Source: a virus
Lineage: Duplodnaviria; Heunggongvirae; Uroviricota; Caudoviricetes
Strand: one strand, 5' to 3'
Virus record (IMG/VR): IMGVR_UViG_3300027797_000011
DNA: 64,000 nucleotides
Every line of letters begins with the position of its first letter. Within the stretch, counting starts at the first letter, position 1. Shown here piece after piece: positions 4,983-61,458 of the stretch. The notes under the pieces are model-generated. The model saw nothing but the letters and a program-made list of their open reading frames with translations. It did not search any database and was not told the DNA's origin. A program made the position numbers and the translations under genes.

Positions 4983-7247
4983 TTAAACAGTTTCTGCTTC
5001 GGTGGTGTTTTTAACTGATAGCACTTCTACGTAATTAATACACAGAGTATCTTTATCAACAGTTAATTCAACAACTCCGCCATCAACTAGTTTTCCAAAT
5101 AGGATTTCTTTACTCAATGGTTTCTTGATAAACTCATCAATAGTACGTTGTAGTGGACGAGCACCCATTTTACTGTCAAATCCTTTCTTGATTAACAGCT
5201 CAACAGCGTCTGCGTTAAGTTTAACATGAACGTTTCTATCTTTGAGTAGCACATTGAGCTCATCAATAAACTTCTTAACAATTTTAATCATTGTTGTTTG
5301 GTCTAACTTACCAAAGCGGATAATACCGTCCAATCGATTGCGGAATTCAGGAGCAAAGAATTTGTTAATAGCATCCTTAGGATCGCTGTCTCGTTCTAAA
5401 CTACCAAAACCTACGCTATTCTTTTCAGAATCTGCCGCACCTAAATTACTGGTCATAATAAGAATAGCATTGCGTCCGTCTGCTTTCTTACCATTACTAC
5501 CGGTAATAAATCCGTTGTCCATTAATTGAAGCATAATGGTTAACACATCGGGGTGCGCCTTTTCAACTTCGTCTAACAACAGAACACAATTAGGATGTTC
5601 TTGTAGTTTAGTAATCAATTGACCTGCATTGTCATCAAATCCAATATAGCCCGGAGGAGCACCAATAAACTTAGCAATAGAGTGTTTCTCTTGGAATTCG
5701 CTCATATCAAAGCGTACTAGTTCTACACTCATGCCTAAAGCAAGTTGTTTAGCAACTTCTGTTTTACCAACACCGGTTGGTCCTGCAAACAAGAAACTAC
5801 CTACTGGTTTATTAAGAGCTTTTAACCCTGCCTGTGCAATATAGATTTTATCAAGCAATGTTTCGATCGCTTTTTCCTGTCCATATACTTTACTACGCAG
5901 ATTTTTATCTAGGTCTTTAAGATTACGACTTTCTTTTGATGCAATTTGATCTAACGGCAACCCTGTAATCTTACTTACTTCAAATACAATTTCATCATGG
6001 TCTACTACACCATTATCTTCGTCTTTAACCTTGAAGCGGGCACAGGCACAATCAATTAGGTCGATTGCTTTATCTGGTAATTTCTTGTCGCTCATGTACT
6101 TAACGCTATACTTAACCGCATCCACTATTGCCTGCTTGTTAATCTTAACGCCATGGTATTTTTCGTAATATTTTTTAAGCCCCATAAGGATCTTAATAGC
6201 AGTTGCTTCGTCGGGCTCGCCCACCGTGACACGTTGGAACCGACGCATTAGGGCACGATCCTTTTCAAAGTGCTTACGGAATTCTTCCCACGTGGTACTA
6301 GCAATAACTTTAATACTTCCTTTACCCAATACAGGTTTAAGCATATTACTCATATCGTTACTGCCACCACCGACTGCCCCAGCACCGCTCATCATATGAG
6401 CTTCGTCAATAAACAAGATACACTTCTTTTTCTTTTCTAGCGCACTAATAACCATCTTTAGGCGTTCTTCAAAGTCTCCACGATACTTGCTTCCGGCAAG
6501 CATGGCACTAATATCCAAACTATAAACTGTATGATCTTTAATAAACTTAGGAACGTTGCCTTCTTCAATCCTACGTGCTAGACCTTCTGCAATAGCAGTC
6601 TTACCTACACCAGGATCTCCGATCATCATAACATTAGCCTTGGTTCTACGTGCAAGAACAAGAGTAATTTCTTCAATTTCTTTTTCACGGCCAATTACCG
6701 GATCTATTTGTTTAGCCTTAACTTTAGCAGTTAGACTTGTGCAATATTGCACAATGATTTTTTCTAAATGTCTGTTACTAACTTCTTCGGAATCTATATC
6801 ATCTGTATTAGATCCTTCCTTGTTTAGAAAATCAATAAACTTGTCTTTATCAATTTTAGCTTTACGCATAAAATACAATGCATGGCTTTTCTTTTCACTG
6901 AATATGCTAAGGAAACAATCAATAGGTTCAATCTTAGATCGTCCGCTAAACAATACTTGTGTAAATGCTCTATTCAACATTCTTTCCATAGAATGTGTTT
7001 TCTTTGGTTTATCATCAAATTCTGCATTAATAATTTCTTTTAGTTCTTTATTTAGAAAGATTTCGATATCTTTCTGTAGTAAACTAACTTCGGATCCGTA
7101 ACTTGTTAAAAGTTCTTTAAACTTTTCATCTTCTAATAGACTATGCAAAAAATGTTCTAGTGTAAGAAACTCGTGTTTATACTTTGTAGCTAATTCTACA
7201 GCTCGTTCAAAGATTACAGTTAAACTTTTATCTGGTTCTAACATCAA
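4983..7247 (-). CDS. clpA: ClpA-like AAA+ unfoldase with two AAA+ modules
   Basis: 754 aa. Clp N-domain at the N-terminus. Walker A motifs GDPGVGKT and GPTGVGKT. Length and architecture match ClpA rather than ClpB. Confidence 0.85.
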   Translation of the reverse strand: MMLEPDKSLTVIFERAVELATKYKHEFLTLEHFLHSLLEDEKFKELLTSYGSEVSLLQKDIEIFLNKELKEIINAEFDDKPKKTHSMERMLNRAFTQVLFSGRSKIEPIDCFLSIFSEKKSHALYFMRKAKIDKDKFIDFLNKEGSNTDDIDSEEVSNRHLEKIIVQYCTSLTAKVKAKQIDPVIGREKEIEEITLVLARRTKANVMMIGDPGVGKTAIAEGLARRIEEGNVPKFIKDHTVYSLDISAMLAGSKYRGDFEERLKMVISALEKKKKCILFIDEAHMMSGAGAVGGGSNDMSNMLKPVLGKGSIKVIASTTWEEFRKHFEKDRALMRRFQRVTVGEPDEATAIKILMGLKKYYEKYHGVKINKQAIVDAVKYSVKYMSDKKLPDKAIDLIDCACARFKVKDEDNGVVDHDEIVFEVSKITGLPLDQIASKESRNLKDLDKNLRSKVYGQEKAIETLLDKIYIAQAGLKALNKPVGSFLFAGPTGVGKTEVAKQLALGMSVELVRFDMSEFQEKHSIAKFIGAPPGYIGFDDNAGQLITKLQEHPNCVLLLDEVEKAHPDVLTIMLQLMDNGFITGSNGKKADGRNAILIMTSNLGAADSEKNSVGFGSLERDSDPKDAINKFFAPEFRNRLDGIIRFGKLDQTTMIKIVKKFIDELNVLLKDRNVHVKLNADAVELLIKKGFDSKMGARPLQRTIDEFIKKPLSKEILFGKLVDGGVVELTVDKDTLCINYVEVLSVKNTTEAETV

Positions 7248-22120: not shown

Positions 22121-25100
22121 TTATACCTCTCTATTGGGGAATAGCAAATATTTAGCAACAGAATTGTCCAGGGTGTTTAATACAATTAACCTATCAATAT
22201 CGAAGTTAATTGTTTTAAAATCGATGCCATATGCTTCAATTCTTCTAATTATTGTCTGGCTATTTCCGGGCAAACAATAACACAACGGCATGCATAATAT
22301 TCTTCCTAACGGGATGCCCGAAGAATCTTGTACAGTTCTCATGAATTTTGGCAATAGATATTCGTCTACATCTGCAATTGATTCTAAAGCACCCCGCATG
22401 TTATCTATACTATTTGGATATAAAGTAGTATTGTCATATTCTACCGATTCGCTAACAGTTTGTCCAGAATCGCTAATCATGTTATCGGTTAATTTAACGT
22501 ACACAACTTCGTATATTTTATTTCCGGTATTATCTAGAGCAAACGCCGATGTTAATTTACCAAAATAAAGTTTTCTTCTAGAAAAATAATTTTGCATAGC
22601 CGCTACATAATCACCTAGATTAAGTTGCTCTATTCCGTATTCAAACACAAACTCTATTTTAGATTGTGCGCCAAATTCTGGATCGTACGGTCTATATAAT
22701 AAATTAGGATCGAATATATATTGGTCAGTGATAAATGTATTAAATTGGTCTCGAACTGCACTAGACAACAATGGTTGAAATAATATTTGTGTATATCGAG
22801 ATCCAGTGTATGCCAAAACATTAATCTTAAATGTTTTAACCAGTTGGCTCGATGAATTACTGTCAGTTGCTCTAACTGTAATCGTATATGTTCCTGCCGA
22901 AGTTCCGTAAACTACTTTACCCTGAATAGCACCATCTGTAGTAAATGTTAATCCCGGAGGTAATGTTCCTGATTGTAATGCGTATGTGATTTTTAAGTAG
23001 GTATCTTCATGGACTGATTTTATGCTTAATTCTGATTGTTCGCCTGGATATACTGCACCGACAATGTCATTAGTGACCCATGTCATTTTGCTCAGTACAG
23101 CTCCTAAAATTGTTAGACTAAATGTTCTATCTCTAAATTGTGTTTGGTTCTTAAGAATATTATATTTAGAAACTCTAACTTTAAATGTGTATGTTGTACT
23201 ATACGTAGGAGAATATTGTATGCGACCGCTTATGCCGCCGGTTGTTGGATTTAATTCTAATCCGGGCGGTAATATACTGGAGTTATTTTGATTAACAATA
23301 TTCCAATCATAGGTAATTGTTCCTGCACCAGGATCGCAGTCGTATGTTTCTAATTGTATAACTTGATATGTTCCTGATCGTACTGATCCCAAATTAGCCG
23401 GAGTCATCCATTGCGGCGGCACGGGATAAGTTCCGTTAGGTATTAGTGTTGTTGGATCATTAACATCTATGGCATATTGTGCTTTAACCTTAGCAGATCC
23501 GTTGGCCGCAGTTAAGGAGAATTGATATACTTTATTAACATAACGTCCACTTACACCAAATGCCTGTTGACTTTCGTGTTCGTAAGGATTAATATCATAC
23601 CCTTCGGCATCATAGGTTCCGTTGGAACCGGCCCTATAAAATAAAGTAAGAGAATCTTGAACTTGTCCGTATAAGTGTCCTGTTTGACTAAGAGTTAGTC
23701 CAGGCGGTAATTGTCCTTCACCGTCTTCAATATAAAACACAATTGGTTTATTTGGAGCCAATACATCGTATGTTGCTGTAAATTGGAAATTAACAAACTG
23801 TCCATTGATTAGAAAGCGTTCCCCACTCGGCCCAATTGTAGGTTTTGGTCCCGGTGTTGTTATAACTGGCGCTGTTGGGCCATTAACGTCGATATAGAAT
23901 TTTCGGTCAGCTACACCATGGGTATTTTGTGCTCGAATAACAAATGTTGAATTTGTAGTTTGATATACAGATGTTGGAATTCCGGCAATGTTTCCCGACG
24001 ACGTAGTCAATGACATACCACTAGGTAATGATCCAGAAATTAGTCGGTAAGCTATATTATCTCCTGATGCATTAATAGTTCTGCTAGAATAAACTAATTC
24101 AGTGGCAGTATAGATAAACCCAGGAGGTGTGGTCCATACAGGAGTTGGAAGTGGTTGTTGTGGAGCAACAATCGGTGCAGTAAATTGTTCACTACCTTTA
24201 ATAAAGTTAATTTGATAAATTGTTCTTGAAATTAGGTCACCTGCAAGCACAACTACTTTTACAATATTGCTTCCTGTTTGAACAGTGATAGGAAATGACC
24301 AATTTTCCGGAACTATACCTAATGTATCGATGCTAACTTGAGCCTGAATATTATCAACAAACGATTTAATAGCAACAGTACTTACTGAGCTCGGAATGTT
24401 TACAACATATTGTGTTATATCTTTGTTAAATGACGGTTCTAAAAATCCTGAATTTACATGGATGTTTTTTAGATACGAATTTGCGCTACCTGTCTTTGAA
24501 AGATTTATATAATAACTTTGTTTAGTAATTAAATCTTCTGCGGTTATTGTAATAGTAGCAGTTGAATTGCCCACTACTACAGGAATATCTTGTGAAAATT
24601 CGCCCGATGTAACGCTCACACCATTAACTTTGATAGTTGCCCGTGTAGACGATTTGAACGGTTTAATCTTTATAGAAGAAACATCGTATGTAAAATTAGA
24701 ATTGTAAACAGTTACCGTTGAATTAAATGCAGGGTAATAAGATCCGGTGCTTAGTTCTATACTAGTTAGATTGGTAGAAGTGCTGAACCCTTCGGCCGCC
24801 CGCCCAATAAACACATTATAGGTAGTAACACTATCTCCCGAGTTTGCTCTAACAACAATTGGTATACGAGTAAGACCTACAGGTATTGTAATAGGATCAG
24901 AGAAAGTACCGGACGCTACTCCAACATTGTTAACTGACACGGTTGAAGTTGGATCTGTTACAAAAGGTTTAAATTGGAATGGAGTTGTGAAATTATATGG
25001 AAGGCCAATAAAATAATCATTAATATTAAAACTAAATGCAGGGTCTAATGTACCTACATTTAATATTAAATTAGTAAGAGTTGAAATATTGCTACCAACC

Positions 25101-27952
25101 CTGGTAATATATAATGTTGTTGTATTAACATAGGACGGGTCAGCCGCAGTACAGACAATACTGATAGTGTTATTACCAACCCATTCAATTTTATTTGTGA
25201 GAGAGTTAACGTAGTTATAACCTATAAGTGGCACAGTAGTAGTTGCACCTGAAAGTACTGTTGATCCGTTAATTTTTAATGTAGCTCCTACGTCATTTGC
25301 CACAACAAATATATCTGTTGATGTGGTAAAGTGCGAGGCATAGCTGGTATACGTGTTTATATCTTGAACAAATCCTTCTTGGAGAGTAGGACTCTGATAC
25401 AATATACCCGAGGTTATATCAACAACAGATAATGAATTATCGTAGTTAGCAGAACGATTAACAGTTAATCTATATGTAGAAGTAGTTATACTATCTTGAG
25501 CAAGTACTACAGTTCGTATAGTGTTAGTTCCTATAGATAAAGGAATTGAACCAGTTGATTGGCCGGACAGTACAGATATATTATTAACAGTGACAGTGGC
25601 GTTACTTTCTTCTACTGTGGGAGTAATTTTTAACGATGATATTGTATAACCAACATTTGCAGAATAACTTGTGACCAATGACTGGAACTGCGGAGTTAAT
25701 ATTGCATTTGTTACAAAATTAGAAAGACGAGAGTTAGAACTGCCCAACCTTCTAACAACCACATTGTAAATATTTTGTGTAACATTATCTGGTGCGGTAA
25801 CCGCAATAACTATATTGTTATTACCAACTAGTAGATTAATAGGTTCTGACGTGCGCCCCGGAGGTACATTTCGATCATTAACTACCACATACGAATATTC
25901 CTGAGAAGCTGTAGGAGTTACGTTTATAGTTGATATGAAGTTAGTTACAGTAGCAATATAGTTTGTTATAGTTGAACTAAACGCCGGAGCAAGTGTACCT
26001 GATGAAAGTAACAGAAAACTTAATGTTGCTGTACTGCTAAATCCTCTATTAATAGTTATTCTATAAAAGTGCGTGGTTGATTGGTCTGAAGAAATAATTC
26101 TAACATCAATTGCATTAACACCTAATTTTAAATTAATAGGTTGTGATAATATTCCTGACTGTGCCAATATTCCGTTGATGTATATAGTTCCAGCGGTATC
26201 AATCGAAGTTGCATTAGCTCTAACAGTGGTTATGGTATTGGCAAGATATGCTGTATAGAAAAATGTGTTACTATTGAAACTTGCAGTAAACGATCCTACA
26301 CTAATCGAAAGAGCTGATAATAATGAAATATTACTTAATCTAGAAACGTTAATAGTATAAGTTCGAGTAGTTAAATCCTGTGCAGTAACAACAATAGTTT
26401 CAACATTTCTTCCATAAACTAGATCTTCAAGATAGACAAGACCAGAAGTTGCAGTATTTCCGTTAATGGCAATTGAAGCAAATTGGTTTGATATTATTGG
26501 AGTTATTCCTAATTTGCTAACTGCTGTATCAACAGTTAATGAATAGGTAGTTACTGTGCTTCTAAATGCAGGAAATAATGTGCCTGCATTAAATGATAAA
26601 CTTTGTAAAGCATTGTCGGGACTTTTTACTCGGTTGATACTTATAGTATATGTACTAGTTGTTCTGTATTGAGAAGTTACCCTAATGGTACTAGTAGTGT
26701 ATCCAACGGGTAATTGTACAACTGGTGTTGCAGATCCGGATGTTACTGTTGTTGATGTATTAAACAGGATAGTAGAATATATACTTGCCGAAACAGGAGT
26801 AAATGTTAAACTAGTAGTAAGATTACCTACCGTTAATAGATAATTTGTTATAGTTGAATTAAAAGTAGGGGAAAAAGTCCCAGCACTTGCAGTTAGCGAT
26901 GATAGAGATGAGTTATTGCTATCCGCAGTTAACGCCCCATAAAAATAAGGACCAACCAAATATGGAAAGGTTGGAGTACCGTTAGAATCTTGTGTGGCAA
27001 AATATGCATAGGTGCCTAAAGGATAGTCCGGAGTTACACAATATCTTCCATTGTATAGATCTAGGGTAACGGTGTTGCTTGTTAAATAATCCCAATCTTC
27101 GACTAATGTTCCTAAATCAAACGATGCATTAATAACTTCACCTGTACCAATTGACACGGGAGTGTTAGTATATATATTGGCACCAATAATTTTTGTAACC
27201 TTAGTGGCAGTTGTGATAGAATTGCCGGTTATGGACATTCCCGGCACTATACCTGATACACTATAAACTAAGAATGATGTAGCCGAAGTTACTGTTCCGT
27301 TAACAACTAGTGTTCTTGCGGCAGGCCGATTAACTTTAGATGTAGTCCTGTAACCCGAAACCATTAGTGTTGCTGTACTAGAAGCACTTACTGGATTAGA
27401 ATATCCGTATGGACCGTAGATAGGGTATCCGTCTAACGCCCAACCTAATATTTTGCTATGACCATCTGATTCGACATATCCGGAAGTTCTATTAGAAATA
27501 GCACCCCAAGAATCGTCATTGATAAATCTTGTATCGACATAATGGTATATGCCTGAGATATTTGGGCTTCCACTGCTAGAGTCTTCGCCAAATATTTCTG
27601 CGTCAACAAAGTTTACGGTCCAGGTTGTGCCATTGCTTCCCCCAGTGCTAATTCCTGCGTTTGGGCTAAAAAATACAACACCTATAGTACTAACACCTAA
27701 TATACCATATGGTACCTTAGAGTTTGTTCCGGACGTTGGCAGATTTTTACCACCTCTATACGGCCAAGCATAGTTAAATCCTTGGGTTTGTATAGTATTG
27801 GCGTTTAGTGTATTAGGAAAGGTGCCGTAAGTAGCAAGCCCTGGTAAACTTTGTGTAACAATATTCCAGGATGTTGACCCTGTTGTATATGTAACAGTTA
27901 ATTGACCAGGTACGCCGTTACCTGAAAATGAATGAGAGGGATTAAACGACAT
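22121..27952 (-). CDS. giant adhesin / tail fibre (1943 aa) with N-terminal He_PIG-type Ig domains and at least 9 cadherin-like beta-sandwich repeats
   Basis: Repeated LSxLxxSxGTLxPxFxxxxTxYxxxV units of about 90 aa (LSSLTASAGTFSPTFNSTITNYLLTV, LQSLSFNAGTLFPAFRSTVTTYSLTV, and others). He_PIG-like YRLISGSLPSGMSLTTSSGNIAGIP. Confidence 0.8.
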   Translation of the reverse strand: MSFNPSHSFSGNGVPGQLTVTYTTGSTSWNIVTQSLPGLATYGTFPNTLNANTIQTQGFNYAWPYRGGKNLPTSGTNSKVPYGILGVSTIGVVFFSPNAGISTGGSNGTTWTVNFVDAEIFGEDSSSGSPNISGIYHYVDTRFINDDSWGAISNRTSGYVESDGHSKILGWALDGYPIYGPYGYSNPVSASSTATLMVSGYRTTSKVNRPAARTLVVNGTVTSATSFLVYSVSGIVPGMSITGNSITTATKVTKIIGANIYTNTPVSIGTGEVINASFDLGTLVEDWDYLTSNTVTLDLYNGRYCVTPDYPLGTYAYFATQDSNGTPTFPYLVGPYFYGALTADSNNSSLSSLTASAGTFSPTFNSTITNYLLTVGNLTTSLTFTPVSASIYSTILFNTSTTVTSGSATPVVQLPVGYTTSTIRVTSQYRTTSTYTISINRVKSPDNALQSLSFNAGTLFPAFRSTVTTYSLTVDTAVSKLGITPIISNQFASIAINGNTATSGLVYLEDLVYGRNVETIVVTAQDLTTRTYTINVSRLSNISLLSALSISVGSFTASFNSNTFFYTAYLANTITTVRANATSIDTAGTIYINGILAQSGILSQPINLKLGVNAIDVRIISSDQSTTHFYRITINRGFSSTATLSFLLLSSGTLAPAFSSTITNYIATVTNFISTINVTPTASQEYSYVVVNDRNVPPGRTSEPINLLVGNNNIVIAVTAPDNVTQNIYNVVVRRLGSSNSRLSNFVTNAILTPQFQSLVTSYSANVGYTISSLKITPTVEESNATVTVNNISVLSGQSTGSIPLSIGTNTIRTVVLAQDSITTSTYRLTVNRSANYDNSLSVVDITSGILYQSPTLQEGFVQDINTYTSYASHFTTSTDIFVVANDVGATLKINGSTVLSGATTTVPLIGYNYVNSLTNKIEWVGNNTISIVCTAADPSYVNTTTLYITRVGSNISTLTNLILNVGTLDPAFSFNINDYFIGLPYNFTTPFQFKPFVTDPTSTVSVNNVGVASGTFSDPITIPVGLTRIPIVVRANSGDSVTTYNVFIGRAAEGFSTSTNLTSIELSTGSYYPAFNSTVTVYNSNFTYDVSSIKIKPFKSSTRATIKVNGVSVTSGEFSQDIPVVVGNSTATITITAEDLITKQSYYINLSKTGSANSYLKNIHVNSGFLEPSFNKDITQYVVNIPSSVSTVAIKSFVDNIQAQVSIDTLGIVPENWSFPITVQTGSNIVKVVVLAGDLISRTIYQINFIKGSEQFTAPIVAPQQPLPTPVWTTPPGFIYTATELVYSSRTINASGDNIAYRLISGSLPSGMSLTTSSGNIAGIPTSVYQTTNSTFVIRAQNTHGVADRKFYIDVNGPTAPVITTPGPKPTIGPSGERFLINGQFVNFQFTATYDVLAPNKPIVFYIEDGEGQLPPGLTLSQTGHLYGQVQDSLTLFYRAGSNGTYDAEGYDINPYEHESQQAFGVSGRYVNKVYQFSLTAANGSAKVKAQYAIDVNDPTTLIPNGTYPVPPQWMTPANLGSVRSGTYQVIQLETYDCDPGAGTITYDWNIVNQNNSSILPPGLELNPTTGGISGRIQYSPTYSTTYTFKVRVSKYNILKNQTQFRDRTFSLTILGAVLSKMTWVTNDIVGAVYPGEQSELSIKSVHEDTYLKITYALQSGTLPPGLTFTTDGAIQGKVVYGTSAGTYTITVRATDSNSSSQLVKTFKINVLAYTGSRYTQILFQPLLSSAVRDQFNTFITDQYIFDPNLLYRPYDPEFGAQSKIEFVFEYGIEQLNLGDYVAAMQNYFSRRKLYFGKLTSAFALDNTGNKIYEVVYVKLTDNMISDSGQTVSESVEYDNTTLYPNSIDNMRGALESIADVDEYLLPKFMRTVQDSSGIPLGRILCMPLCYCLPGNSQTIIRRIEAYGIDFKTINFDIDRLIVLNTLDNSVAKYLLFPNREV

Positions 27953-28852: not shown

Positions 28853-29591
28853 CTTCTATTATCCTTTTATATAATTCTGGACCACCATGTTCTTTAATTT
28901 CCCCGTCTACAATAACATGCACATGGGTAGGAACAATCATGTCTAAAAATTGTTGATTATTTGTAATTACGGCCATTGATTTTTTACCATCTACATAGCT
29001 GTTTAAAACGGCGCCTAATATCTGTAGGTCTTCTTCCTCTAAATTAGAATCTATTTCATCTATAATGACAAAATCTGGATCTAACATCAACATCTGAAGA
29101 ATTTCGTTTTTCTTAAATTCTGATAGATTCATAAAATCGTAATCCATCATCGCATCCCCATGCCCTGATGGTAATTCGAGCATAGTACACAATACCTTAT
29201 AATCTTTTTCTAATTCGTTTTCGGAACGAGTATCTTTCTTGGCTTTCATCATAGCTTTAATTAGGTCTATGTTTCTAAGCCCGTAGATTTCTGGAGGATT
29301 TTGAAAAGTTGTGTGTATACCTAACTTTGCCCTATCCTCACAATCTAATCTAGTTATGTTTTTATGTTTAAAAGTAATCGATCCCTCAGTTTGAATTATT
29401 GAAGGATGCCCGGCAATTAAATGAGCAAGACTGCTTTTGCCAGAATGTTTAGGGCCCAAGATTGCATGAATCTCGCCCTGTTTGATGTTTATTGATATAT
29501 TTTTTAGTAGGTCTTTAGTATCAACTACCGCAGACACGTTTTTTATTGTTAGCATTGTTTTTATTATAAAGGTTTCAAACTCTCTTGTCAA
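28824..29591 (-). CDS. sufC: SufC-like ABC ATPase
   Basis: Walker A ILGPKHSGKSSL. The region NLSEFKKNEILQMLMLDPDFVIIDEIDSNLEEEDLQ matches SufC [36 protein letters not shown]. 255 aa. Confidence 0.75.
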   Translation of the reverse strand: MTREFETFIIKTMLTIKNVSAVVDTKDLLKNISINIKQGEIHAILGPKHSGKSSLAHLIAGHPSIIQTEGSITFKHKNITRLDCEDRAKLGIHTTFQNPPEIYGLRNIDLIKAMMKAKKDTRSENELEKDYKVLCTMLELPSGHGDAMMDYDFMNLSEFKKNEILQMLMLDPDFVIIDEIDSNLEEEDLQILGAVLNSYVDGKKSMAVITNNQQFLDMIVPTHVHVIVDGEIKEHGGPELYKRIIEDGYSQFSQS

Positions 29592-29708: not shown

Positions 29709-29981
29709 ATGGAATATATCATTGGTGTTATTTTTATTGCCTTAGTAGCGTTCTTTTTTCTTAACAGAAAACAGATCGAGGTAATCGAGGAAGTTAAAGC
29801 TGTAGAAAAAGCTGTAGTTGAAGAAGTTAAGGCGGTTGAAGCAGTAGTTGAAGAAGTAGTAAAGAAAGTACGTAAACCACGTGCTACTCCTGCTACCTCG
29901 GCTGCTAAGAAGCCGGCCACTAAGAAGCCAGCCGCTAAAAAAGCTGTAGTTAAGAAACCTACTACTTTAAAGAAGGCGTAA
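29709..29981 (+). CDS. small membrane-anchored protein with VEEVKAVE repeats and a histone H1-like Lys/Ala/Pro basic tail
   Basis: RBS AGGAA 9 nt upstream. N-terminal TM IIGVIFIALVAFFFL. C-terminal AAKKPATKKPAAKKAVVKKPTTLKKA. Terminator follows. The overlapping minus ORF 29630..30016 looks like a mirror artefact. Confidence 0.6.
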   Translation: MEYIIGVIFIALVAFFFLNRKQIEVIEEVKAVEKAVVEEVKAVEAVVEEVVKKVRKPRATPATSAAKKPATKKPAAKKAVVKKPTTLKKA

Positions 29982-31043
29982 TTCTTTAGCCTTATCGTGC
30001 AAGGCAAACGAGGCAATATTTTTGCCTTTTGATTCGCACATAATATCGTGCGTATTGAGAAAGCTCAAAGCCCATTCGTTAACTGCTGTATTCCAGTAGA
30101 AATCAGAATGTGCTCTGAGCTTTTGTTTTTTGTATCCGGCAGTTAGTAACGTGTGATGATGGGGCATTATGTTAGTGTCATGATCCACGAGATAATCTTC
30201 CCGAGATACTGAATAATGACAAGTAGGGCGCATACTACGCCAACTGTCCAGGACACGAATAACACGACTATCTTGGTTACTGATATATTCCCCCTCACGT
30301 ATCCAGTGATGGTGAATGTCAAGCACAATAGGAACGATATCGCTAATAGTAAGGCAGTCATCTAAGCCCCAGGAGTTTTCTTCGTTTTCAATTGTGATAC
30401 AATTTCTTGCTTCGGGGGTAAGTCTTTTGTAGGCAGATCGAATACCTTCGGGACCTTGTTTACCCGAGATGTGGACGTTGATTTTAAAGTCCTGAAATGA
30501 TTTACCGTAACCCATGTACCTGGCCATATCTGCATGATATTCAAACTCCTCTATTGATCTTTCAACAATACCTGGGTTATCGCTTGCCAGCACAGTAAAC
30601 TGGCCAGGATGCATAGACAACCGAACACCGTTCTTGCGAGCCGCATCTCCCACGGTTCTAAATTCTCTTTCGAGATATGTTCTAACGTTGCTAGTCCGCC
30701 AAAACCCAGCCCAATCACGCTGAGTATATACAGGCAGTATATCGCTTGAGAGTCGTACCATTCTAAGATTTTCATCTAGTGCTCCTACACGTTCGACGAG
30801 CAACCGAGTAGACTCAATGTTACCTACCATTAAGTCCCAAAGTCTTTGCTCTGCGACTTCTTTGCTCTGTCTATTTAACCATGCAACAGTAGTGGAGCCA
30901 GTATTATATTTCTTAGCATCGTCCTTAGCGTCGATACCATTAACTTGTCCTGCGTGATCAATCCACTTGCAGGCAAAACCAATTCGTTTAGTCACTAGAT
31001 TTGTCTTTCTTTGAAAGCATAAAAGAACCGTCGCCGTTGTCAT
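29967..31043 (-). CDS. uvdE: UV-damage endonuclease (UvdE/UVDE family); true start probably internal
   Basis: TIM-barrel UVDE pattern including RLSMHPGQFTVL and NCITIENEE. 358 aa. Local GC higher than surroundings. Confidence 0.7.
   Translation of the reverse strand: MTTATVLLCFQRKTNLVTKRIGFACKWIDHAGQVNGIDAKDDAKKYNTGSTTVAWLNRQSKEVAEQRLWDLMVGNIESTRLLVERVGALDENLRMVRLSSDILPVYTQRDWAGFWRTSNVRTYLEREFRTVGDAARKNGVRLSMHPGQFTVLASDNPGIVERSIEEFEYHADMARYMGYGKSFQDFKINVHISGKQGPEGIRSAYKRLTPEARNCITIENEENSWGLDDCLTISDIVPIVLDIHHHWIREGEYISNQDSRVIRVLDSWRSMRPTCHYSVSREDYLVDHDTNIMPHHHTLLTAGYKKQKLRAHSDFYWNTAVNEWALSFLNTHDIMCESKGKNIASFALHDKAKELRLL
30003..30031 (+). terminator. rho-independent terminator for 29709..29981
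   Basis: Hairpin GGCAAA-cgaggcaatatt-TTTGCC followed by TTTTG. Confidence 0.55.
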
Positions 31044-33348: not shown

Positions 33349-33462
33349 CTCTAGTCTCCTTTATTAAGGTAGCAAGTTTGACGACATGCAGAGTTTATAA
33401 AGCGGGATGAATGACGTGAAAAGTCCGCTGATGACTTATTATATAGACTACTATTTAACTTG

Positions 33463-33792
33463 TCAATCCCTATTGGGTAAAGTTCTTAGTATTTCTTTTC
33501 TTATATGCTTTATATCTTCAATGATATCTTGTAAGATTTCTCTATCGTTAATTTTGATAGTAATCAGTTCTTTAGTGATTCGCATAGTCCAATACCACCA
33601 TACTATAGTTAACAGCAAGCCACCTGCTCCTACTAACCATTCTAGTTTATATTGATATATTGTTGCCCAATCAAAAATGATGCCTAATACTGATACCAGT
33701 ACTATTGCGCTAAGAGCCATCCATAATTTACGTTGCTTTTCGAATTGCCTTAAAGTTTGAATTTGAGTTTGAATTTGAGTTTGATTTTCCAT
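33463..33792 (-). CDS. membrane protein (109 aa)
   Basis: Two hydrophobic helices; QIQTQIQT repeat at the N-terminus. Confidence 0.5.
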   Translation of the reverse strand: MENQTQIQTQIQTLRQFEKQRKLWMALSAIVLVSVLGIIFDWATIYQYKLEWLVGAGGLLLTIVWWYWTMRITKELITIKINDREILQDIIEDIKHIRKEILRTLPNRD

Positions 33793-38848: not shown

Positions 38849-39022
38849 AAATAAAATTACGATCACGGTCATTACTAGAATAGCTAATAATGAAACAATT
38901 ATACTATATGCGATAGATTTTGTCAACGTCCAACGTTCCCTACCGTTGAGATTTCTCCAGGCAGTAATGCCAAAGTGAATAAGAATTGCAAGTATAGCAA
39001 AAGCTAACCAAAGTCTAATCAT
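38849..39022 (-). CDS. small double-TM membrane protein (58 aa)
   Basis: Internal ATG with AAAGGAG RBS. MIRLWLAFAILAILIHFGITAW...LLAILVMTVIVILF. Confidence 0.45.
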
Positions 39023-50717: not shown

Positions 50718-50749
50718 GATATTTTATCCTTGTTATCTGCTATTTAGTC

Positions 50750-50773
50750 AAAAAAAAGCCCACCGAAGTGGGC
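50750..50773 (-). terminator. rho-independent terminator of the tmRNA coding piece
   Basis: Minus sense: GCCCACUUCGGUGGGC followed by U8. Confidence 0.7.
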
Positions 50774-50779
50774 TTGGTG

Positions 50780-51110
50780 GTTTCTGTTACGAGGTATTTC
50801 CTACCCTAGGCGGCTGTTAGGCGGCCAATGCGAACTGTTCGTCGTTTGCGTTTACGTGTTGTGCTTCTACGACCGAGTTACCCCAATCCTACGGGTTCTG
50901 CTTTCCCGAGCTGTCCACTCATTTACTTGTTGCCCTGTCGAAACTATGCATCCCCATCAAAAGCATACTATTTTAGTCTGAGCGCATCACATGCGACTTT
51001 TTAACTCAACGACCTAGTATGCTTATGGTGGAGATGGGGGGATTCGCACCCCCGTCCAGAACACTTTTCTCTTTGCTTCATACAGCAATAACCTACAGTA
51101 TATATTTATT
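50780..51110 (-). ncRNA. ssrA: circularly permuted two-piece tmRNA (ssrA). Acceptor piece at about 51026-51110 ending CCA; intervening hairpin 50956-51025; coding piece 50955 down to about 50780. Tag ANDEQFALAA.
   Basis: Minus sense. The 3' end GGACGGGGGUGCGAAUCCCCCCAUCUCCACCA has a T-arm and acceptor. The 5' start GGGGAUGCAUAGUUUCGACAGGG lies 70 nt downstream of the CCA in transcription order. Acceptor GGGGAUG/CAUCUCC has a G3-U70 pair. Tag frame GCA AAC GAC GAA CAG UUC GCA UUG GCC GCC UAA. The spacer forms an AAGCAUACUA/UAGUAUGCUU stem. Confidence 0.8.
51075..51092. repeat. 18-bp direct repeat copy 1 (GCTTCATACAGCAATAAC)
   Basis: Identical copy at 51567..51584; extended imperfect similarity of about 34 bp. 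Confidence 0.8.
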
Positions 51111-51446
51111 CAGAGGAGTTGTCAATAACCTGTTACGCCAAAACTCTCGGGCCGCATCGCTTTGTTCATCGCTTGGAACTAGTACTCCGTCAATCTCACT
51201 TTGCACAATGTCGTACATCACCGTGGCAACACCCGTTCGTTTGTAACCGGAATATACTTCAATGTGATGCGGATACCATTTGTTATCTCTATCATACTTG
51301 AAAACTGCTGTGGAGATTTTTTTAGACCGAACTTTGTTTTTAATTACGGATACAGTGAATATAAGACTGCATTTATTTTTGGTGTAATCGTAAACAACTT
51401 GTTCTTGAGTTTTAATCAAAGAACAGACCAACTGATAGTCTGACAT
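51093..51446 (-). CDS. small GNAT-family acetyltransferase (117 aa)
   Basis: HIEVYSGYKRTGVATVMYD matches the GNAT acetyl-CoA-binding motif A (R/Q-x-x-G-x-G/A). Confidence 0.55.
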   Translation of the reverse strand: MSDYQLVCSLIKTQEQVVYDYTKNKCSLIFTVSVIKNKVRSKKISTAVFKYDRDNKWYPHHIEVYSGYKRTGVATVMYDIVQSEIDGVLVPSDEQSDAAREFWRNRLLTTPLNKYIL

Positions 51447-51452
51447 CAGTGG

Positions 51453-51554
51453 TCAAAAGATCGAAGTTTTTTCTTCGTCTTTGGATTTATCTCTAGTTAG
51501 ATAACCTATACCAAATACTACCCAAAATGCTAAAAATAAACATAAACCTAACAT
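51453..51554 (-). CDS. small TM peptide (33 aa) immediately upstream of the GNAT gene
   Basis: By-eye translation MLGLCLFLAFWVVFGIGYLTRDKSKDEEKTSIF. Lies between direct-repeat copy 2 and the GNAT start. Confidence 0.35.
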   Translation of the reverse strand: MLGLCLFLAFWVVFGIGYLTRDKSKDEEKTSIF

Positions 51555-51566
51555 AACTTTCCTTCT

Positions 51567-51584
51567 GCTTCATACAGCAATAAC
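51567..51584. repeat. 18-bp direct repeat copy 2 (GCTTCATACAGCAATAAC)
   Basis: See copy 1. Confidence 0.8.
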
Positions 51585-51711
51585 TTATACTATACAACAA
51601 TTAAGGAATGTTGTCAACCTTGTCGGACTCCGCAGGGCGTGTGGTTCCTCCGACTAGATTGATAGGCCTCTCACCTACTGCTATCTGCTATGCAGAAATG
51701 CCCCTGTCAGA

Positions 51712-52440
51712 TTAATGATTAATCCACTCGCTATTTTTATATGGTTTCCCAACTTCTGCTTGCGGTAGATAACTGACTATTTTTTTCTTAAAATGTTTTA
51801 TTATAGGATGACCGTGATCGTGTCCAAATGCTTTTAGATACATGATATAACAATTTTTTGTATATCTACCTTTGTGATTTTGATTTATGTAGTTTATAAT
51901 CTTTGTTTTTTTGCCGTTAAACATTTCATGTAATTCACAGGCAGTATTAAATGCATACGCATCAATCTCGTCTCTACATCCTAGGTAACCCTGCTCTTCT
52001 CTTTGCTTAGTTCTACTGGCCGTACTAGGAAACTCTGGTGTTGTTTTCCAGTTCCTACGGCGGTGTTGTCTCATGTGTATAATTTCATGTAGCACAGTAT
52101 CGGCAAATGTTGAACATATTCTAGAGAACATTCTAGGACTTAATTTTACAGGTTTTGTTTTATTATGATAATTGAAATTAATTTCAATGCATTTTTTATA
52201 TTCTGCATCAAAGTCACTATAGTATGCACCACCGATCCAAACTTTTCCCGGATCTACTTTAGTTGAATAAAGTTTTCTAAACCTAATAGGAATATATTGG
52301 TTAATTTGATTTTTAAACTTACGCTGGATTTGCTCGGGCGTAAGTTGTTGATTGACTATTTTGTCATGAGTTTGATATAAAATATCAAAAAGAGTTTTTC
52401 TATCCAATTGGAACCAGTCAAAAGCGGCGTCTTTTTTCAT
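51712..52440 (-). CDS. putative zinc metallopeptidase (HExxH), SprT-like
   Basis: VLHEIIHMRQH motif. 242 aa. Confidence 0.5.
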   Translation of the reverse strand: MKKDAAFDWFQLDRKTLFDILYQTHDKIVNQQLTPEQIQRKFKNQINQYIPIRFRKLYSTKVDPGKVWIGGAYYSDFDAEYKKCIEINFNYHNKTKPVKLSPRMFSRICSTFADTVLHEIIHMRQHRRRNWKTTPEFPSTASRTKQREEQGYLGCRDEIDAYAFNTACELHEMFNGKKTKIINYINQNHKGRYTKNCYIMYLKAFGHDHGHPIIKHFKKKIVSYLPQAEVGKPYKNSEWINH

Positions 52441-52781: not shown

Positions 52782-53411
52782 ATGGTCATGTGCAATCTTC
52801 AACCTGAGTTTGATTCAAACTGGATTGATTTAATCAAATTAGATCCGGTACATCCAACGGACGAAAAAAAGAATTTAATGAGAAGATTGGGAAATGATAG
52901 ACTCATTTATACTCTTATCATGGACGGCAAACCTTGTGCCATGCTTCAGGTGGCGCTCAAAAATAAATGCCCCACTACTGCAAATGAACTTTGGAATAAA
53001 CGGGAAGATGTAGATTTTAACTATGCTGTGTTTTATTCCGTATTCCGGTTACCCGGTGCAGACAATGCCAAGGGGTCTGTAAAAGAATTAATATTTGAGG
53101 CCGCCGCAGACCTACAAAAAAGATATGTAGGAATTTCAAAGTTTATTACATTAAGCCCAATACCTAGTCTTCGTAAAAACTTTAAAAAGAATCCCGGTAT
53201 TGAAGAAGTACAAGAATACATATTCAATAAAAAAGACCCAGTAGCACGATTCCATATGATGAATGGAGCCTTACCCTGGGCTGTTAGACCAAAAGCTGAT
53301 TCTAGCAAATTACGTAAAGATGAAAGTTGGGGTTGGATGGTCAGTTATGATTATACACCACTACTAGACCATCCAACCATTAAACTACATCCTATAGTAG
53401 AAATAGCCTAA
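52782..53411 (+). CDS. malonyl-CoA decarboxylase-like catalytic domain (GNAT-fold), stand-alone 209 aa
   Basis: ITLSPIPSL (MCD TLSPIPGF motif with catalytic Ser) and ARFHMMNGALPW (MCD FHLGNGA motif with catalytic His). Confidence 0.55.
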   Translation: MVMCNLQPEFDSNWIDLIKLDPVHPTDEKKNLMRRLGNDRLIYTLIMDGKPCAMLQVALKNKCPTTANELWNKREDVDFNYAVFYSVFRLPGADNAKGSVKELIFEAAADLQKRYVGISKFITLSPIPSLRKNFKKNPGIEEVQEYIFNKKDPVARFHMMNGALPWAVRPKADSSKLRKDESWGWMVSYDYTPLLDHPTIKLHPIVEIA

Positions 53412-54017: not shown

Positions 54018-54255
54018 CTTGCCCTCCTTTCTTTAATATGTCTCTTTTACAATTTTAAATTCTGTTGTCGGATACTTTGCTTTAAACTCTTCAGTCTTGA
54101 CGTAATCGTTATAGTGCTTTGCATCAAAAAACATACGATGGAAAACTGTTTTGTGATCCAAGGTAGTTACTGTGAGATAAACTGATTTTGCTTTGCCAGC
54201 CATTATATGCCTTTCACTGTTTAATGTAATATTATAACATCAGACACAGAGTCTG

Positions 54256-54840
54256 TCAAGGTATTAATTTTCTACGTTCTCGTCTCTCAGCCGCTAATGT
54301 AAAAACTTTCTCATTGTCATTGGTCCAGTCTATTGCTTTCTTAGGAATGATCAAACCTGACTCGAGTGTCACCCCATTAATAGAGTGCGGCTCATTTTCA
54401 TCATAGGTCCATCCTAGGTGTTTCATCATGCGATGCTTGACTAACAGGTTGGGACTACGAAAAACTTCAGTATCATCAAACCCCATCATGACACCAAGCT
54501 CGCAAACTGCACCGCTACGACATACACCTGCTACACAATGCACAATGACGTTCATCCTATTCTCTAATGCATGTTGCAATAATCGAACAAGCTCGGCGGC
54601 CTGCTCGTGACTGCAACGCATAGATTCTTCAAGTGCAAAATCCTTTTCTTCAATGTCTAAAAATTCAAACTGATGAACTTCTTTGAACGTATATTTTGGT
54701 ACAGGAAAATCACCAGGCGGATCCACAATCTGAATCAGCATGGCATTAACTCCGGGGTCAAAATGAAACCCTTTTTTGATGTCGCTTAGTGCAACGTTTT
54801 GAATCCATGGCATAATTGCCTCCTTAACATTCAATGTCAA
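54256..54840 (-). CDS. dual-specificity / tyrosine protein phosphatase (CX5R)
   Basis: Active-site signature VHCVAGVCRSGAV. 194 aa. Confidence 0.75.
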   Translation of the reverse strand: MTLNVKEAIMPWIQNVALSDIKKGFHFDPGVNAMLIQIVDPPGDFPVPKYTFKEVHQFEFLDIEEKDFALEESMRCSHEQAAELVRLLQHALENRMNVIVHCVAGVCRSGAVCELGVMMGFDDTEVFRSPNLLVKHRMMKHLGWTYDENEPHSINGVTLESGLIIPKKAIDWTNDNEKVFTLAAERRERRKLIP

Positions 54841-61400: not shown

Positions 61401-61458
61401 TGTTTAATTCCTTTATGTATTGATTATACAGTAAATCTAATTTATTGTCAATACCTTT

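Follow-up and report, generated by a model that had tools for sequence, protein, structure and literature searches.

A repeated tmRNA 5′ end encloses a peptide–GNAT gene pair in a phage genome and probably records recombination between tmRNA loci

Permuted, two-piece tmRNA genes were reportedly described by Keiler et al. in 2000 and by Sharkady & Williams in 2004. Aquatic phages are among the known carriers of two-piece tmRNAs (PMC9004378), and a 2025 tmRNA database report mentions intervening sequences that contain a tRNA gene or a repetitive element (PMC11915505). Islander islands, which reside in tRNA and tmRNA genes, have ends formed by the regenerated gene and a displaced fragment (PMC4383910). 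In T4-type phages, PeSL cassettes consist of small non-essential ORFs lying between repeated motifs that contain strong sigma-70-like promoters (Arbiol et al., 2010, PMC2839356; PMC4122927); when these repeats recombine, ORFs are shuffled, gained or lost among related phages (PMC2839356; PMC4122927). Here we describe a locus in a 64,000-nucleotide stretch of DNA from a Caudoviricetes virus (the window) at which two small genes lie between two copies of a tmRNA 5′ end.

An exact search of the window found the 18-mer GCTTCATACAGCAATAAC at 51075–51092 and 51567–51584 (plus-strand coordinates) and nowhere else, confirming both positions given in an earlier note on this DNA. No further match with two or fewer mismatches was present in the window, and because none was expected (100 shuffles), chance was ruled out as the origin of the repeat. 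The likeness between the copies spans more than the 18-mer: 51066–51125 and 51558–51617 align without gaps over 60 nt at 75% identity (spacing 492), and therefore the ~34 bp of additional similarity estimated in the note was right. As the note had also proposed, the copies delimit a small-peptide gene and a GNAT gene, orf33 and orf117, both on the minus strand (Table 1). Copy 1 begins directly after the orf117 stop codon (TAG, 51095–51093), and 12 nt separate the end of copy 2 from the orf33 ATG. In each copy, a near-consensus sigma-70 promoter precedes nt 1–18 of a phage-type permuted tmRNA acceptor piece, and the last 11 codons of orf117 are read from promoter P1. This unit is present in only two copies in the 64 kb.

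Table 1. Features of the tmRNA locus and of the enclosed gene pair (positions within the window)
Feature	Position	Strand	Description
tmRNA coding piece	50748..50955	minus	5′ GGGGATG, G3·U70 with acceptor piece
Terminator hairpin	50775..50756	minus	In tmRNA coding piece, followed by a T-run
Tag ORF	50849..50817	minus	ANDEQFALAA*, inside tmRNA coding piece
tmRNA intervening sequence	50956..51025	minus	70 nt, without ORF (sequence reading and census)
tmRNA acceptor piece	51026..51092	minus	Repeat copy 1 (51092..51075), T-arm, acceptor 3′ strand CATCTCC-A-CCA
orf117	51093..51446	minus	117 aa, minimal GNAT-fold protein
Promoter P1	51097..51125	minus	TTGACA-17-TATACT, repeat copy 1, within 3′ end of orf117; the tmRNA's own promoter
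orf33	51453..51554	minus	33-aa membrane peptide MLGLCLFLAFWVVFGIGYLTRDKSKDEEKTSIF
Orphan acceptor-piece 5′ stub	51555..51584	minus	GTTATTGCTGTATGAAGC (51584..51567), then AGAAGGAAAGTT
Promoter P2	51589..51617	minus	TTGACA-17-TATAGT, repeat copy 2; upstream of orf33–orf117
Structured RNA-like element	51618..51714	minus	Outer helix and two hairpins; between orf242 stop codon and P2

The earlier note had placed copy 1 just upstream of the tmRNA. It is instead the first 18 nt of the tmRNA itself, the match to Rfam tmRNA_permuted (RF04321; 119.1 bits, gathering 47) beginning at 51087. A second model, beta_tmRNA (RF01850), which includes the promoter, matched at 117.9 bits (gathering 84) across 51139–50753, and ARAGORN called a permuted tmRNA at 50726–51118. 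The acceptor stem forms between the two pieces, with GGGGATG (from 50955) facing CATCTCC-A-CCA (51036–51026), a G3·U70 pair and a CCA end. By its covariance matches, acceptor stem and tag, the tmRNA gene of the window is a standard permuted (two-piece) gene. In the Rfam model, the GCUGU within the 18-mer pairs with ACAGC of the coding piece.

Both promoters match the sigma-70 consensus at 11 of 12 positions with a 17-bp spacer, and at both copies 4 nt lie between the end of the –10 hexamer and the 18-mer. Sites of the form TTGACA-N16-18-TATANT number 12 in the window, versus 0.32 expected, and all except one are on the minus strand. P1 aligns with the promoter positions of beta_tmRNA, and its promoter type (…AAATAAATATATACTGTAR) also precedes the tmRNA at GNAT-free loci. 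P2 would drive orf33–orf117, and AGAAGGAAAGTT, the last part of the stub that follows P2, provides the Shine-Dalgarno sequence of orf33; AAGGAAAGTTATG, from the stub, is identical to the string that follows the CCA in loci L161–163. A search for a terminator between the GNAT gene and the tmRNA yielded only weak hairpins within the ORFs (51442–51424 and 51477–51462), which do not form in homologues and were not counted as terminators.

Upstream of P2 lies a structured element that scored 78.6 bits against our covariance model R1 and occurs once in the window. It was found at 10 distinct loci, at each of them on the tmRNA strand and 0–620 nt upstream of the tmRNA 5′ end. In its alignment 92% of cells are paired, versus 36–45% in slid controls; compensatory changes occur in 17 of the 20 pairs. 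The element has no Rfam match at E ≤ 1, and folding the orf242–P2 interval as a single sequence was uninformative (z-scores of –0.5 and –0.8); the structure was seen by comparative analysis only. We assign this unannotated structured RNA to a 'tmRNA upstream module'.

A direct repeat of 60 nt at 75% identity, with copies just 492 bp apart that are both strong promoters, might have arisen by local tandem duplication, in which an in-situ copy of the tmRNA promoter and leader gave the upstream genes a strong promoter without horizontal exchange. However, P2 and P1 are alike at only 22 of 40 positions, whereas P2 matches the tmRNA promoter of L118 at 31 of 40 positions (91% identity over 57 nt) and P1 matches those of L046 and L087 at 30 of 40; the two copies belong to different promoter lineages. 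In addition, P2 carries the structured element known ahead of tmRNA promoters elsewhere, and L133 has the stub without P2. Local tandem duplication, already disfavored on these grounds, is very unlikely.

Comparison with related loci, whose coding pieces we located by searching for acceptor-stem complementarity, points to a different origin. From 51589 to 51022 the window is 93.5% identical to L133, and this block begins 5 nt before the stub and ends in the acceptor piece. Identity to L133 is only 70% in the coding piece, for which L075 is closer (81%). The same stub junction occurs in L133 and L159 behind a different upstream flank, with the stub of L133 following a thioredoxin-like ORF in place of P2. 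The comparison with an empty site that the earlier note had called for gave a positive answer: in L118 and L158 the same structured element is followed by a P2-type promoter and directly by the tmRNA, with no cargo, and at two further loci (L075 and L157) other cargo is present. The window is a mosaic whose block edges fall in conserved tmRNA segments. We consider it likely that the two 18-mers are promoter-bearing copies of the tmRNA 5′ end, that the cassette came about by recombination between tmRNA loci, and that the pair forms a P2-driven operon. In the best reading of these data, the displaced 5′ fragment is a leftover of homologous-recombination shuffling at the tmRNA gene and not a product of integrase-mediated insertion at an att site.

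The latter explanation was that of the earlier note, which had proposed site-specific insertion of a mini-cassette at the tmRNA. Part of that proposal survives, in that a discrete two-gene cassette is indeed flanked by a displaced and a regenerated gene segment, but the repeat is no att core: it consists of a sigma-70 promoter joined to the 5′ end of the acceptor piece. If a mini-element had been integrated by an integrase, with the 18-mer as att core and a replacement 5′ part of the gene brought in by the element, its ends would bear a regenerated gene and a displaced fragment, as they do here and as tDNA islands are defined (PMC4383910); one junction stands behind two different upstream flanks (those of the window and of L133), and single-copy 'empty' loci exist. 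Nevertheless, the insert contains no recombinase: neither orf33 nor orf117 nor their neighbors have an integrase, recombinase or nuclease domain, and 0.5 kb is too short to encode one. Crossovers at tDNA islands, in the Williams classification, fall in the anticodon loop, the T-loop or the 3′ acceptor end. The identity between our copies ends elsewhere, at nt 18–28 of the acceptor piece, in its 5′ extension and ~20 nt 5′ of the T-arm. Moreover, relatives carry the pair variously within the intervening sequence, behind a decayed acceptor or downstream of tRNAs, and repeated homologous or illegitimate recombination therefore fits better than insertion at one specific site. Taken with the points in its favor, these observations leave the integrase explanation highly improbable.

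The 18-mer occurs exactly in at least 118 IMG/VR viral contigs, in ~110 of which …GTGTTCTGGAC, a T-arm and CCA come next, so that in viral contigs it is nearly always the 5′ end of a tmRNA. A scan of 185,579 bacterial and archaeal genomes returned 11 chance-level matches, none within a tmRNA, which ruled out a host origin of the 18-mer. GenBank phages contained no close relatives of the window, matches being limited to tRNA and tmRNA fragments at ~78% identity, and tblastn of orf117 against the 118 loci bearing the 18-mer found no match. That the two 18-mers are identical to each other tells us little, because only ~1 change per 18 nt is expected at the 6.5% divergence from L133 and because the donor loci were retrieved with the exact 18-mer as query, making it invariant among them by construction.

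This consideration bears on whether the stub has been kept by function, for co-regulation or interaction with the tmRNA of an mRNA that begins like the acceptor piece; possible routes are a shared initial transcribed sequence, a factor that binds the 5′ end, or GCUGU–ACAGC pairing. The window and L133 have identical stubs despite their unlike upstream flanks, the GCUGU of the 18-mer does pair with the coding piece in the Rfam model, and further lineages retain acceptor-piece relics upstream of the pair. Yet zero changes in 18 nt are not significant at 93.5% block identity, the possible pairing amounts to just 5 bp, and many homologues of the pair have no stub at all (L131, L141, L120–122, L132 and L165), which indicates that the stub is dispensable for the pair. 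We therefore think such leader mimicry unlikely.

The pair itself is a real gene pair. Peptides of the form FW.VFG..YL.RDKSKD directly precede every orf117 homologue that we examined, and in most homologues the two ORFs are translationally coupled. The dN/dS of the GNAT gene is 0.04–0.10 and the peptide always accompanies it; the pair is a conserved module under purifying selection. In 12 of ~14 distinct contexts the pair adjoins tmRNA or tRNA genes; in two contexts (L126–128 and L144) the contig has no tmRNA or tRNA gene, and thus the association is not absolute. In L134 and L140 an intact acceptor piece ends in CCA, which is followed by TAAGGAGAGTT, the ATG, the peptide and GNAT genes and then the coding piece, so that in L134 the pair lies within the 474-nt intervening sequence of a permuted tmRNA gene that is still intact. 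A gene of this type scored 120 bits against Rfam tmRNA_permuted across 2323–3031, and ARAGORN did not find the tmRNA of L134. Elsewhere the pair stands immediately 3′ of a tRNA CCA (L135 and L136/L143) or downstream of remnants: a pseudo-acceptor in L129 (alignment score 24 versus a shuffle maximum of 15; 0 of 1000), an acceptor-piece relic with the string CACCA followed by TAAGGAAAGTTATG in L161–163, and a type-2 stub in L164. ORFs lie inside tmRNA intervening sequences at L134 and 17 other loci; at L088 and L049 intervening sequences contain orf33-like peptides without the GNAT. Separately, the intervening sequence of L085/L096 contains a 124-aa ORF with a GNAT-like motif.

These contexts raise the more far-reaching idea that the pair is a cargo module specialized for tRNA-like genes, one that rides behind a CCA, whose mRNA would be cut from the precursor by tRNA processing and whose GNAT would act on trans-translation or the translation apparatus, with Ala-tmRNA, SmpB or ribosomal proteins, for example, as candidate targets. 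The excised intervening sequence of L134 would then itself be the mRNA, and the stub of the window a footprint of this life style. We regard this idea as conceivable but doubtful.

That orf117 encodes a GNAT, as the earlier note had it, is supported by fold, motif and profile evidence. The predicted structure has the core β-sheet and the β4-α3-β5-α4 unit. Motif A (Q/R-x-x-G-x-G/A) reads [K/H/Q]69-R70-x-G72-x-A74, with R70, G72 and A74 invariant in 23 sequences, and aligns with YRGLGLA of PA4534. On its own the protein scores 12.6 bits against Acetyltransf_CG (cut-off 30), below the Pfam threshold, and searches of Pfam, PHROGs, NCBIfam and PADLOC with orf117, orf33 and orf242 returned nothing above threshold. 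The family profile A1 matches proteins at E values of 1e-10 to 1e-23, and the matching regions correspond to Pfam Acetyltransf_1/7/10, whereas in a PDB sequence search it reached only PA4534, at E ~0.7. The sequence link from orf117 to GNAT families is transitive only.

The note had gone further and likened the protein to toxins of the TacT/AtaT class, with the peptide as partner; in that case it would acetylate aminoacyl-tRNA or Ala-tmRNA. The GNAT fold, the tight linkage to tmRNA and tRNA genes in most contexts and the frequent translational coupling of the two ORFs are compatible with this. Toxins of the TacT/AtaT/ItaT class, however, are full-length GNATs of ~160–175 aa with an N-terminal α1-α2 substrate arm. 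At 117 aa orf117 is shorter, and no N-terminal helices are predicted, residues 1–64 forming strands only. Nor does an RHH/DUF1778 antitoxin gene lie beside it; the partner is a hydrophobic 33-aa peptide without a Pfam, PHROG, NCBIfam or PADLOC match. In size, N-terminal structure and type of partner the pair thus departs from the class, and a toxin–antitoxin function is extremely unlikely.

We therefore return to recombination between tmRNA loci, for which we propose the following course. The peptide–GNAT pair would belong to the tmRNA/tRNA neighborhood of these phages, where it can come directly after an acceptor-piece CCA and hence inside the intervening sequence. The tmRNA loci of different phages may have recombined using ultra-conserved tmRNA segments as homology arms, the left arm being the 18-mer and the right arm the acceptor piece or T-arm, such that a block of stub, pair, P1 and acceptor was inserted between the resident P2 (with its structured element) and the resident intervening sequence and coding piece. 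A left arm of ~18–25 nt is short for homologous recombination, which counts against this scheme. The stub junction fits a deletion between a pair of AAGGAAA microhomologies, the first at nt 21–27 of the acceptor piece, the second in the ribosome-binding site downstream of the CCA. The order of events could have been either of two, both compatible with the data: an ancestor resident in the intervening sequence, or a pair that first lay upstream of the tmRNA. In the resulting arrangement the downstream copy (P1 plus 18-mer) would start the functional tmRNA, and the upstream copy (P2, 18-mer and ~10 nt) is a displaced 5′ stub that has lost its T-arm and acceptor end and become fused to the ribosome-binding site of the operon. 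Host RNA polymerase would initiate at P2 to make a bicistronic peptide–GNAT mRNA, and, because no convincing terminator follows, this transcript would probably continue through the tmRNA; P1 would add tmRNA-only transcripts, and tRNA-processing enzymes would free the tmRNA pieces. Recombination between the repeats would excise the cassette precisely and restore a normal P2–tmRNA gene.

The arrangement in the window is itself a fairly ordinary outcome of phage mosaicism. Its interest lies partly in the replacement of a plausible but wrong label, the att sites of a mini-island, by a testable one, and partly in the view it suggests of a large family of freshwater phages, in which small cargo genes would use the two-piece tmRNA gene as a platform for recombination and expression: conserved tmRNA segments would act as portable homology arms, and the cargo would borrow the promoter and processing signals of the gene. 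If genes in the intervening sequence are in fact expressed, the 'spacer' of permuted tmRNAs is not always junk. Such genes are missed by tmRNA finders that limit the length of the intervening sequence, as ARAGORN missed L134. The GNAT family, if this holds, would gain a strong genomic link to trans-translation.

How, then, does the locus compare with known systems? Like Islander islands, the insert sits in a tmRNA gene with the intact gene on one side and a fragment on the other. It differs in being only 0.5 kb long, in a phage genome and without an integrase; its displaced fragment is a 5′ end with promoter rather than a 3′ fragment, its break lies outside the canonical T-loop, anticodon-loop and 3′-end sublocations, and its block edges and promoter lineages indicate homologous recombination between phage tmRNA loci. 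As in PeSL cassettes, two 11/12 promoters flank the pair, which is present or absent among relatives (L118 and L158 cargo-free, L075 and L157 with other cargo). PeSL motifs, however, are promoter–terminator motifs with a terminator stem-loop, dispersed in many copies through hyperplastic regions, and recombination between them features mini-circle formation, whereas the window has two copies only, each made up of a tmRNA promoter and the conserved 18 nt with which the tmRNA begins. Among GNATs, the closest known to orf117 are minimal ones (Acetyltransf_CG/E. coli YjdJ, PDB 5i0c, and domains of phage and plasmid polyvalent proteins), from which it differs in scoring below Pfam thresholds on its own and in always occurring with a membrane peptide, beside tRNA-like genes. 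With TacT/AtaT/ItaT it shares the GNAT superfamily and a thematic tie to tRNA-like molecules, but its size, missing N-terminal helices and other type of partner set it apart, and there is no proximity at the family or fold level. A limited literature search, which included passages of PMC11915505, found no description of ORFs in tmRNA intervening sequences. In its acceptor and coding pieces, its 70-nt intervening sequence and its …ALAA tag, the tmRNA gene of the window resembles known two-piece tmRNAs; what distinguishes it and its relatives from them is protein-coding cargo, which lies between promoter and acceptor piece in the window and inside the intervening sequence at L134 and the 17 other loci.

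The 18-mer GCTTCATACAGCAATAAC lies at 51075-51092 and again at 51567-51584, and these were its only occurrences in the window even when up to two mismatches were allowed (the shuffled window contained none). As the earlier note had claimed, the two copies exactly bracket genes for a 33-aa membrane peptide (orf33) and a 117-aa mini-GNAT (orf117); ungapped similarity extends over 60 nt (75% identity, 51066-51125 versus 51558-51617, spacing 492 nt). All relevant features at this locus are on the minus strand, and the downstream copy is the start of a permuted two-piece tmRNA gene, which ARAGORN called at 50726-51118 (tag ANDEQFALAA) and which matched the Rfam models tmRNA_permuted (119 bits, 51087 to 50817) and beta_tmRNA (118 bits, 51139 to 50753, a model that takes in the promoter). 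The gene parts and model matches thus show that the 18-mer opens the predicted primary transcript of the tmRNA as its first 18 nt, and does not, as had been thought, merely adjoin the gene.

Exact copies of the 18-mer were found in at least 118 contigs of IMG/VR. Among the matches listed, ~110 of 118 continued into the same acceptor-piece body, T-arm and CCA, and 5′ of the 18-mer in those loci lay either a TTGACA/TATAAT promoter or, directly adjoining, the stop codon of an upstream ORF. A scan of bacteria and archaea (one genome per species; 185,579 species, 596 Gb) returned 11 matches, versus ~17 expected by chance, and none of the 11 lay in a tmRNA. Judging from its sequence contexts, the 18-mer marks out a large lineage of phage tmRNAs. 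The upstream copy is followed 3′ by AGAAGGAAAGTT-ATG, the Shine-Dalgarno sequence and start codon of orf33, with no T-arm or acceptor end in the sequence read; by these features it is an orphan tmRNA stub.

On the minus strand each copy reads TTGACA, a 17-bp spacer, TATA(C/G)T, four bases, then GTTATTGCTGTATGAAGC, and the tmRNA's own promoter (P1) and that upstream of the stub and pair (P2) each agree with the sigma-70 consensus in 11 of its 12 positions. Perfect TTGACA-N16-18-TATANT sites number 12 in the window (11 on the minus strand), versus 0.32 expected. Consensus promoters of the host type are therefore in use throughout this part of the phage genome, and they point to many putative early-type transcription units, read by host RNA polymerase, in the tRNA-rich region. 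When the 40 nt preceding the 18-mer are compared, P2 shares 22 identical positions with P1 and 31 with the functional tmRNA promoter of the related phage locus L118 (91% over 57 nt by BLAST), and P1 shares 30 with L046/L087. P1 and P2 are not recent copies of one another, and these separate lineages contradict an in-situ tandem duplication of the promoter and tmRNA start, which is very unlikely.

The window and L133, a locus from a 360-kb IMG/VR contig, are 93.5% identical from 51589 to 51022, a block reaching from 5 nt ahead of the stub into the acceptor piece. They differ in the 3′ strand of the acceptor stem, each matching its own coding piece, and their coding pieces are just 70% identical. 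The window's tmRNA body is 81% identical to that of L075, which also has the upstream orf242 (58% amino-acid identity) and structured element described below, but whose promoter and tmRNA enclose other cargo (a promoter and a 188-aa ORF). In L133 it is a thioredoxin-like ORF whose stop codon precedes the stub, the layout of promoter-less single-copy tmRNA loci, and this context likewise argues against tandem duplication. From these block identities and contexts, the moving unit is therefore the stub–peptide–GNAT–P1–acceptor piece, whose edges correspond to the best-conserved segments of the tmRNA.

The repeats are thus a functional tmRNA 5′ end and a displaced one, and we propose that they probably arose by recombination between tmRNA loci of different phages, without a site-specific recombinase. 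P2 would drive a peptide–GNAT mRNA that continues through the tmRNA, since no credible terminator was found between the pair and the tmRNA, and P1 would drive the tmRNA alone. The earlier note had read the repeats as an att-core duplication left by site-specific insertion, but no integrase is encoded in or beside the cassette and the break lies at a non-canonical site, making an integrase/att origin highly improbable. Its interpretation is partly supported: it holds for the cassette, and the empty sites that it asked for exist in L118 and L158 (structured element, P2-type promoter and tmRNA, with nothing intervening), but for the origin of the repeats it is unsupported.

The positions of the pair in relatives, compared across ~16 distinct contexts, explain the repeat. 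In L134/L140, whose GNAT is 87% identical to the window's, an intact acceptor piece ending ...GGTCCACCA leads into TAAGGAGAGTT-ATG and the peptide–GNAT pair; 20 nt further on comes GGGCCTGCCATGGTTTCGACAGGG, the coding piece, which has its tag and terminator. Rfam tmRNA_permuted matched L134 (120 bits) across the entire 2323-3031, so the pair lies inside the intervening sequence (IVS) of an intact tmRNA gene, one that ARAGORN did not call. L129/L130 carry a decayed promoter and acceptor piece, then the pair, then an intact tmRNA; the decayed piece aligns to their own acceptor piece with a local score of 24 (shuffles: mean 8.5, maximum 15; 0/1000), its T-arm destroyed and ...CCCACCA followed by TAAGGAAATTCAATG kept. 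In L161-163 (GNAT 92% identical) the upstream relic is just CACCA followed by TAAGGAAAGTTATG, and L164 has a second-acceptor-subtype stub after a small basic ORF, as in L134. The 18-mer stub lies 5′ of the pair in the window, L124, L125, L138 and L133. In L131, L141, L119, L120-122, L132 and L165 the pair precedes promoter and tmRNA, with no acceptor relic upstream; in L135 and L136/L143 it directly follows the CCA of a tRNA; and in L126-128 and L144 no tRNA-like gene was found on the contig. That the stub functions by leader mimicry is unlikely, as it is dispensable in many homologues.

The window's RBS string AAGGAAAGTTATG is identical to the post-CCA string of L161-163, and the stub's AGAAGGAAA is also nt 19-27 of genuine acceptor pieces, e.g. 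in L038. Given these shared strings, loss of the stretch between the two AAGGAAA copies in an acceptor–CCA–RBS arrangement would yield exactly the window's stub junction.

Several side observations concern these loci. Several phages have a very small and strongly basic ORF (e.g. MAYRAKKNSPKSAVRRVLRRRKG) immediately 5′ of their tmRNA acceptor pieces. ARAGORN called tRNAs bearing the amber-suppressor-type anticodon CTA (tRNA-Pyl in its labelling) at L135:2305-2379 and L143:3078-3154, one of them directly upstream of the pair. Other orphan tmRNA 5′ fragments (L119:4353-4400, L016 and L060 (first copy), L032, L061, L082, L089) break inside or just before the T-loop and continue into unrelated DNA, with a complete tmRNA 0.9-1 kb downstream in L119 and L060; these look like a different class of acceptor-piece insertion, possibly an intron, homing endonuclease or integrase-type event.

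The IVS exceeds 110 nt in 24 of 89 non-redundant tmRNA loci, and in 18 of the 24 it is filled by an ORF (32-123 aa) beginning 8-13 nt past the CCA, behind a TAAGGAR Shine-Dalgarno sequence. Several of these ORFs encode small membrane peptides, and the 124-aa ORF of L085/L096 has a GNAT-like motif (FQSKGLGKILILKG). Known contents of intervening sequences, according to a 2025 tmRNA database paper, include a tRNA gene and a repeat element; neither the searched passages of that paper nor a limited literature search yielded a report of ORFs there.

orf117 has 36 homologues (63-97% identity) and a dN/dS of 0.04-0.10 versus L133, L134 and L139, indicating strong purifying selection. A homologue of the small membrane peptide (motif FW.VFG..YL.RDKSKD) lies immediately 5′ of it in every context examined, usually with overlapping stop and start codons. 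The single orf117 sequence fell below all family thresholds (Acetyltransf_CG, E=0.15), but a 23-member family profile searched against 1.84 billion representative proteins matched 345 at E ≤ 0.001 through the C-terminal half (residues ~55-110). Acetyltransf_1/7/10 was present in 8 of the 10 matches scanned with Pfam, some being polyvalent proteins with ART-PolyVal, which upholds the GNAT assignment; a TacT-like toxin–antitoxin is extremely unlikely. P1 lies within the final 33 nt of orf117, and the disordered tail NKYIL of that protein would simply be translated promoter sequence.

Upstream of P2 lies a covarying three-helix structure that is present at 10 distinct loci, in each case 0-620 nt 5′ of a tmRNA gene and on its strand (usually just before the promoter). 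It has a GTAAA junction and YRTAG and GTGARAGGC loops, 92% of cells paired (36-45% in slid controls) and compensatory changes in 17 of 20 pairs, and had no match in Rfam; it could be a terminator or insulator, a 3′-end stabiliser, or a regulator. Next to it, orf242 (weakly SprT-like, E=0.047; homologue at L075:9020-9751) neighbours a tRNA-Arg and a malonyl-CoA-decarboxylase-like gene (52782-53411, plus strand; Pfam MCD E=2.7e-21). A very large freshwater phage is suggested by the ClpB-like, cadherin-like and UvdE genes, by ~18 tRNAs and by the 360-kb contig that carries a relative.

Features of the window and of related phage loci (L-numbers)
Feature	Position	Strand	Description
orf33	51554..51453	minus	33-aa ORF read from sequence
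orf117	51446..51093	minus	117-aa ORF read from sequence
Acceptor piece	51092..51026	minus	18-mer, AAAGAGAAAAGTGTTCTGGAC, T-arm, CATCTCC-A-CCA
tmRNA IVS		minus	70 nt, between acceptor and coding pieces
Coding piece	GGGGATG start at 50955; terminator 50775-50756	minus	G3.U70 with acceptor piece
Example TTGACA-N16-18-TATANT sites	29563-29591, 33438-33466, 38898-38926, 54231-54259, 61423-61451	minus	Motif match
Structured element	51618-51714	minus	~95 nt, upstream of P2; precedes tmRNA promoters in other phages
Structured element, other loci	L075:9749-9844, L158:3742-3837, L157:2723-2816, L098:1007-1101(-), L118:2834-2934, L114:3197-3292, L095:1736-1828(-), L039:532-624(-), L001:5470-5566		
orf242	51712-52440	minus	242-aa ORF upstream of element; HExxH motif (LHEIIHMRQH)
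ClpB-like protein	4983-7247	minus	Double AAA+, 754 aa
Cadherin-like protein	22121-27952	minus	1943 aa; nine cadherin-like repeats, YHYH and Ig-like domains
UvdE homologue	29967-31043	minus	UV-endonuclease
Small basic ORF	L134:2246-2317; L164 upstream of stub; L120-122 between GNAT and tmRNA		
IVS ORFs	L134:2387-2859; L085, L096, L013, L092, L088, L068, L098, L049, L006, L072, L028, L093, L021, L115, L058, L031, L035, L133		

The window arrangement is a new form of known phage mosaicism at a tRNA-like gene. It gains interest from a wider pattern, in which phage tmRNA genes harbour cargo genes, and from a GNAT that is consistently linked to tmRNA. Among its closest analogues are tDNA islands, which are defined by a regenerated gene plus a displaced fragment (PMC4383910); the window likewise has both, but without an integrase and with a non-canonical break. 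The other closest analogue is the PeSL cassettes of T4-type phages, where repeated promoter motifs recombine and so shuffle small ORFs (PMC2839356).
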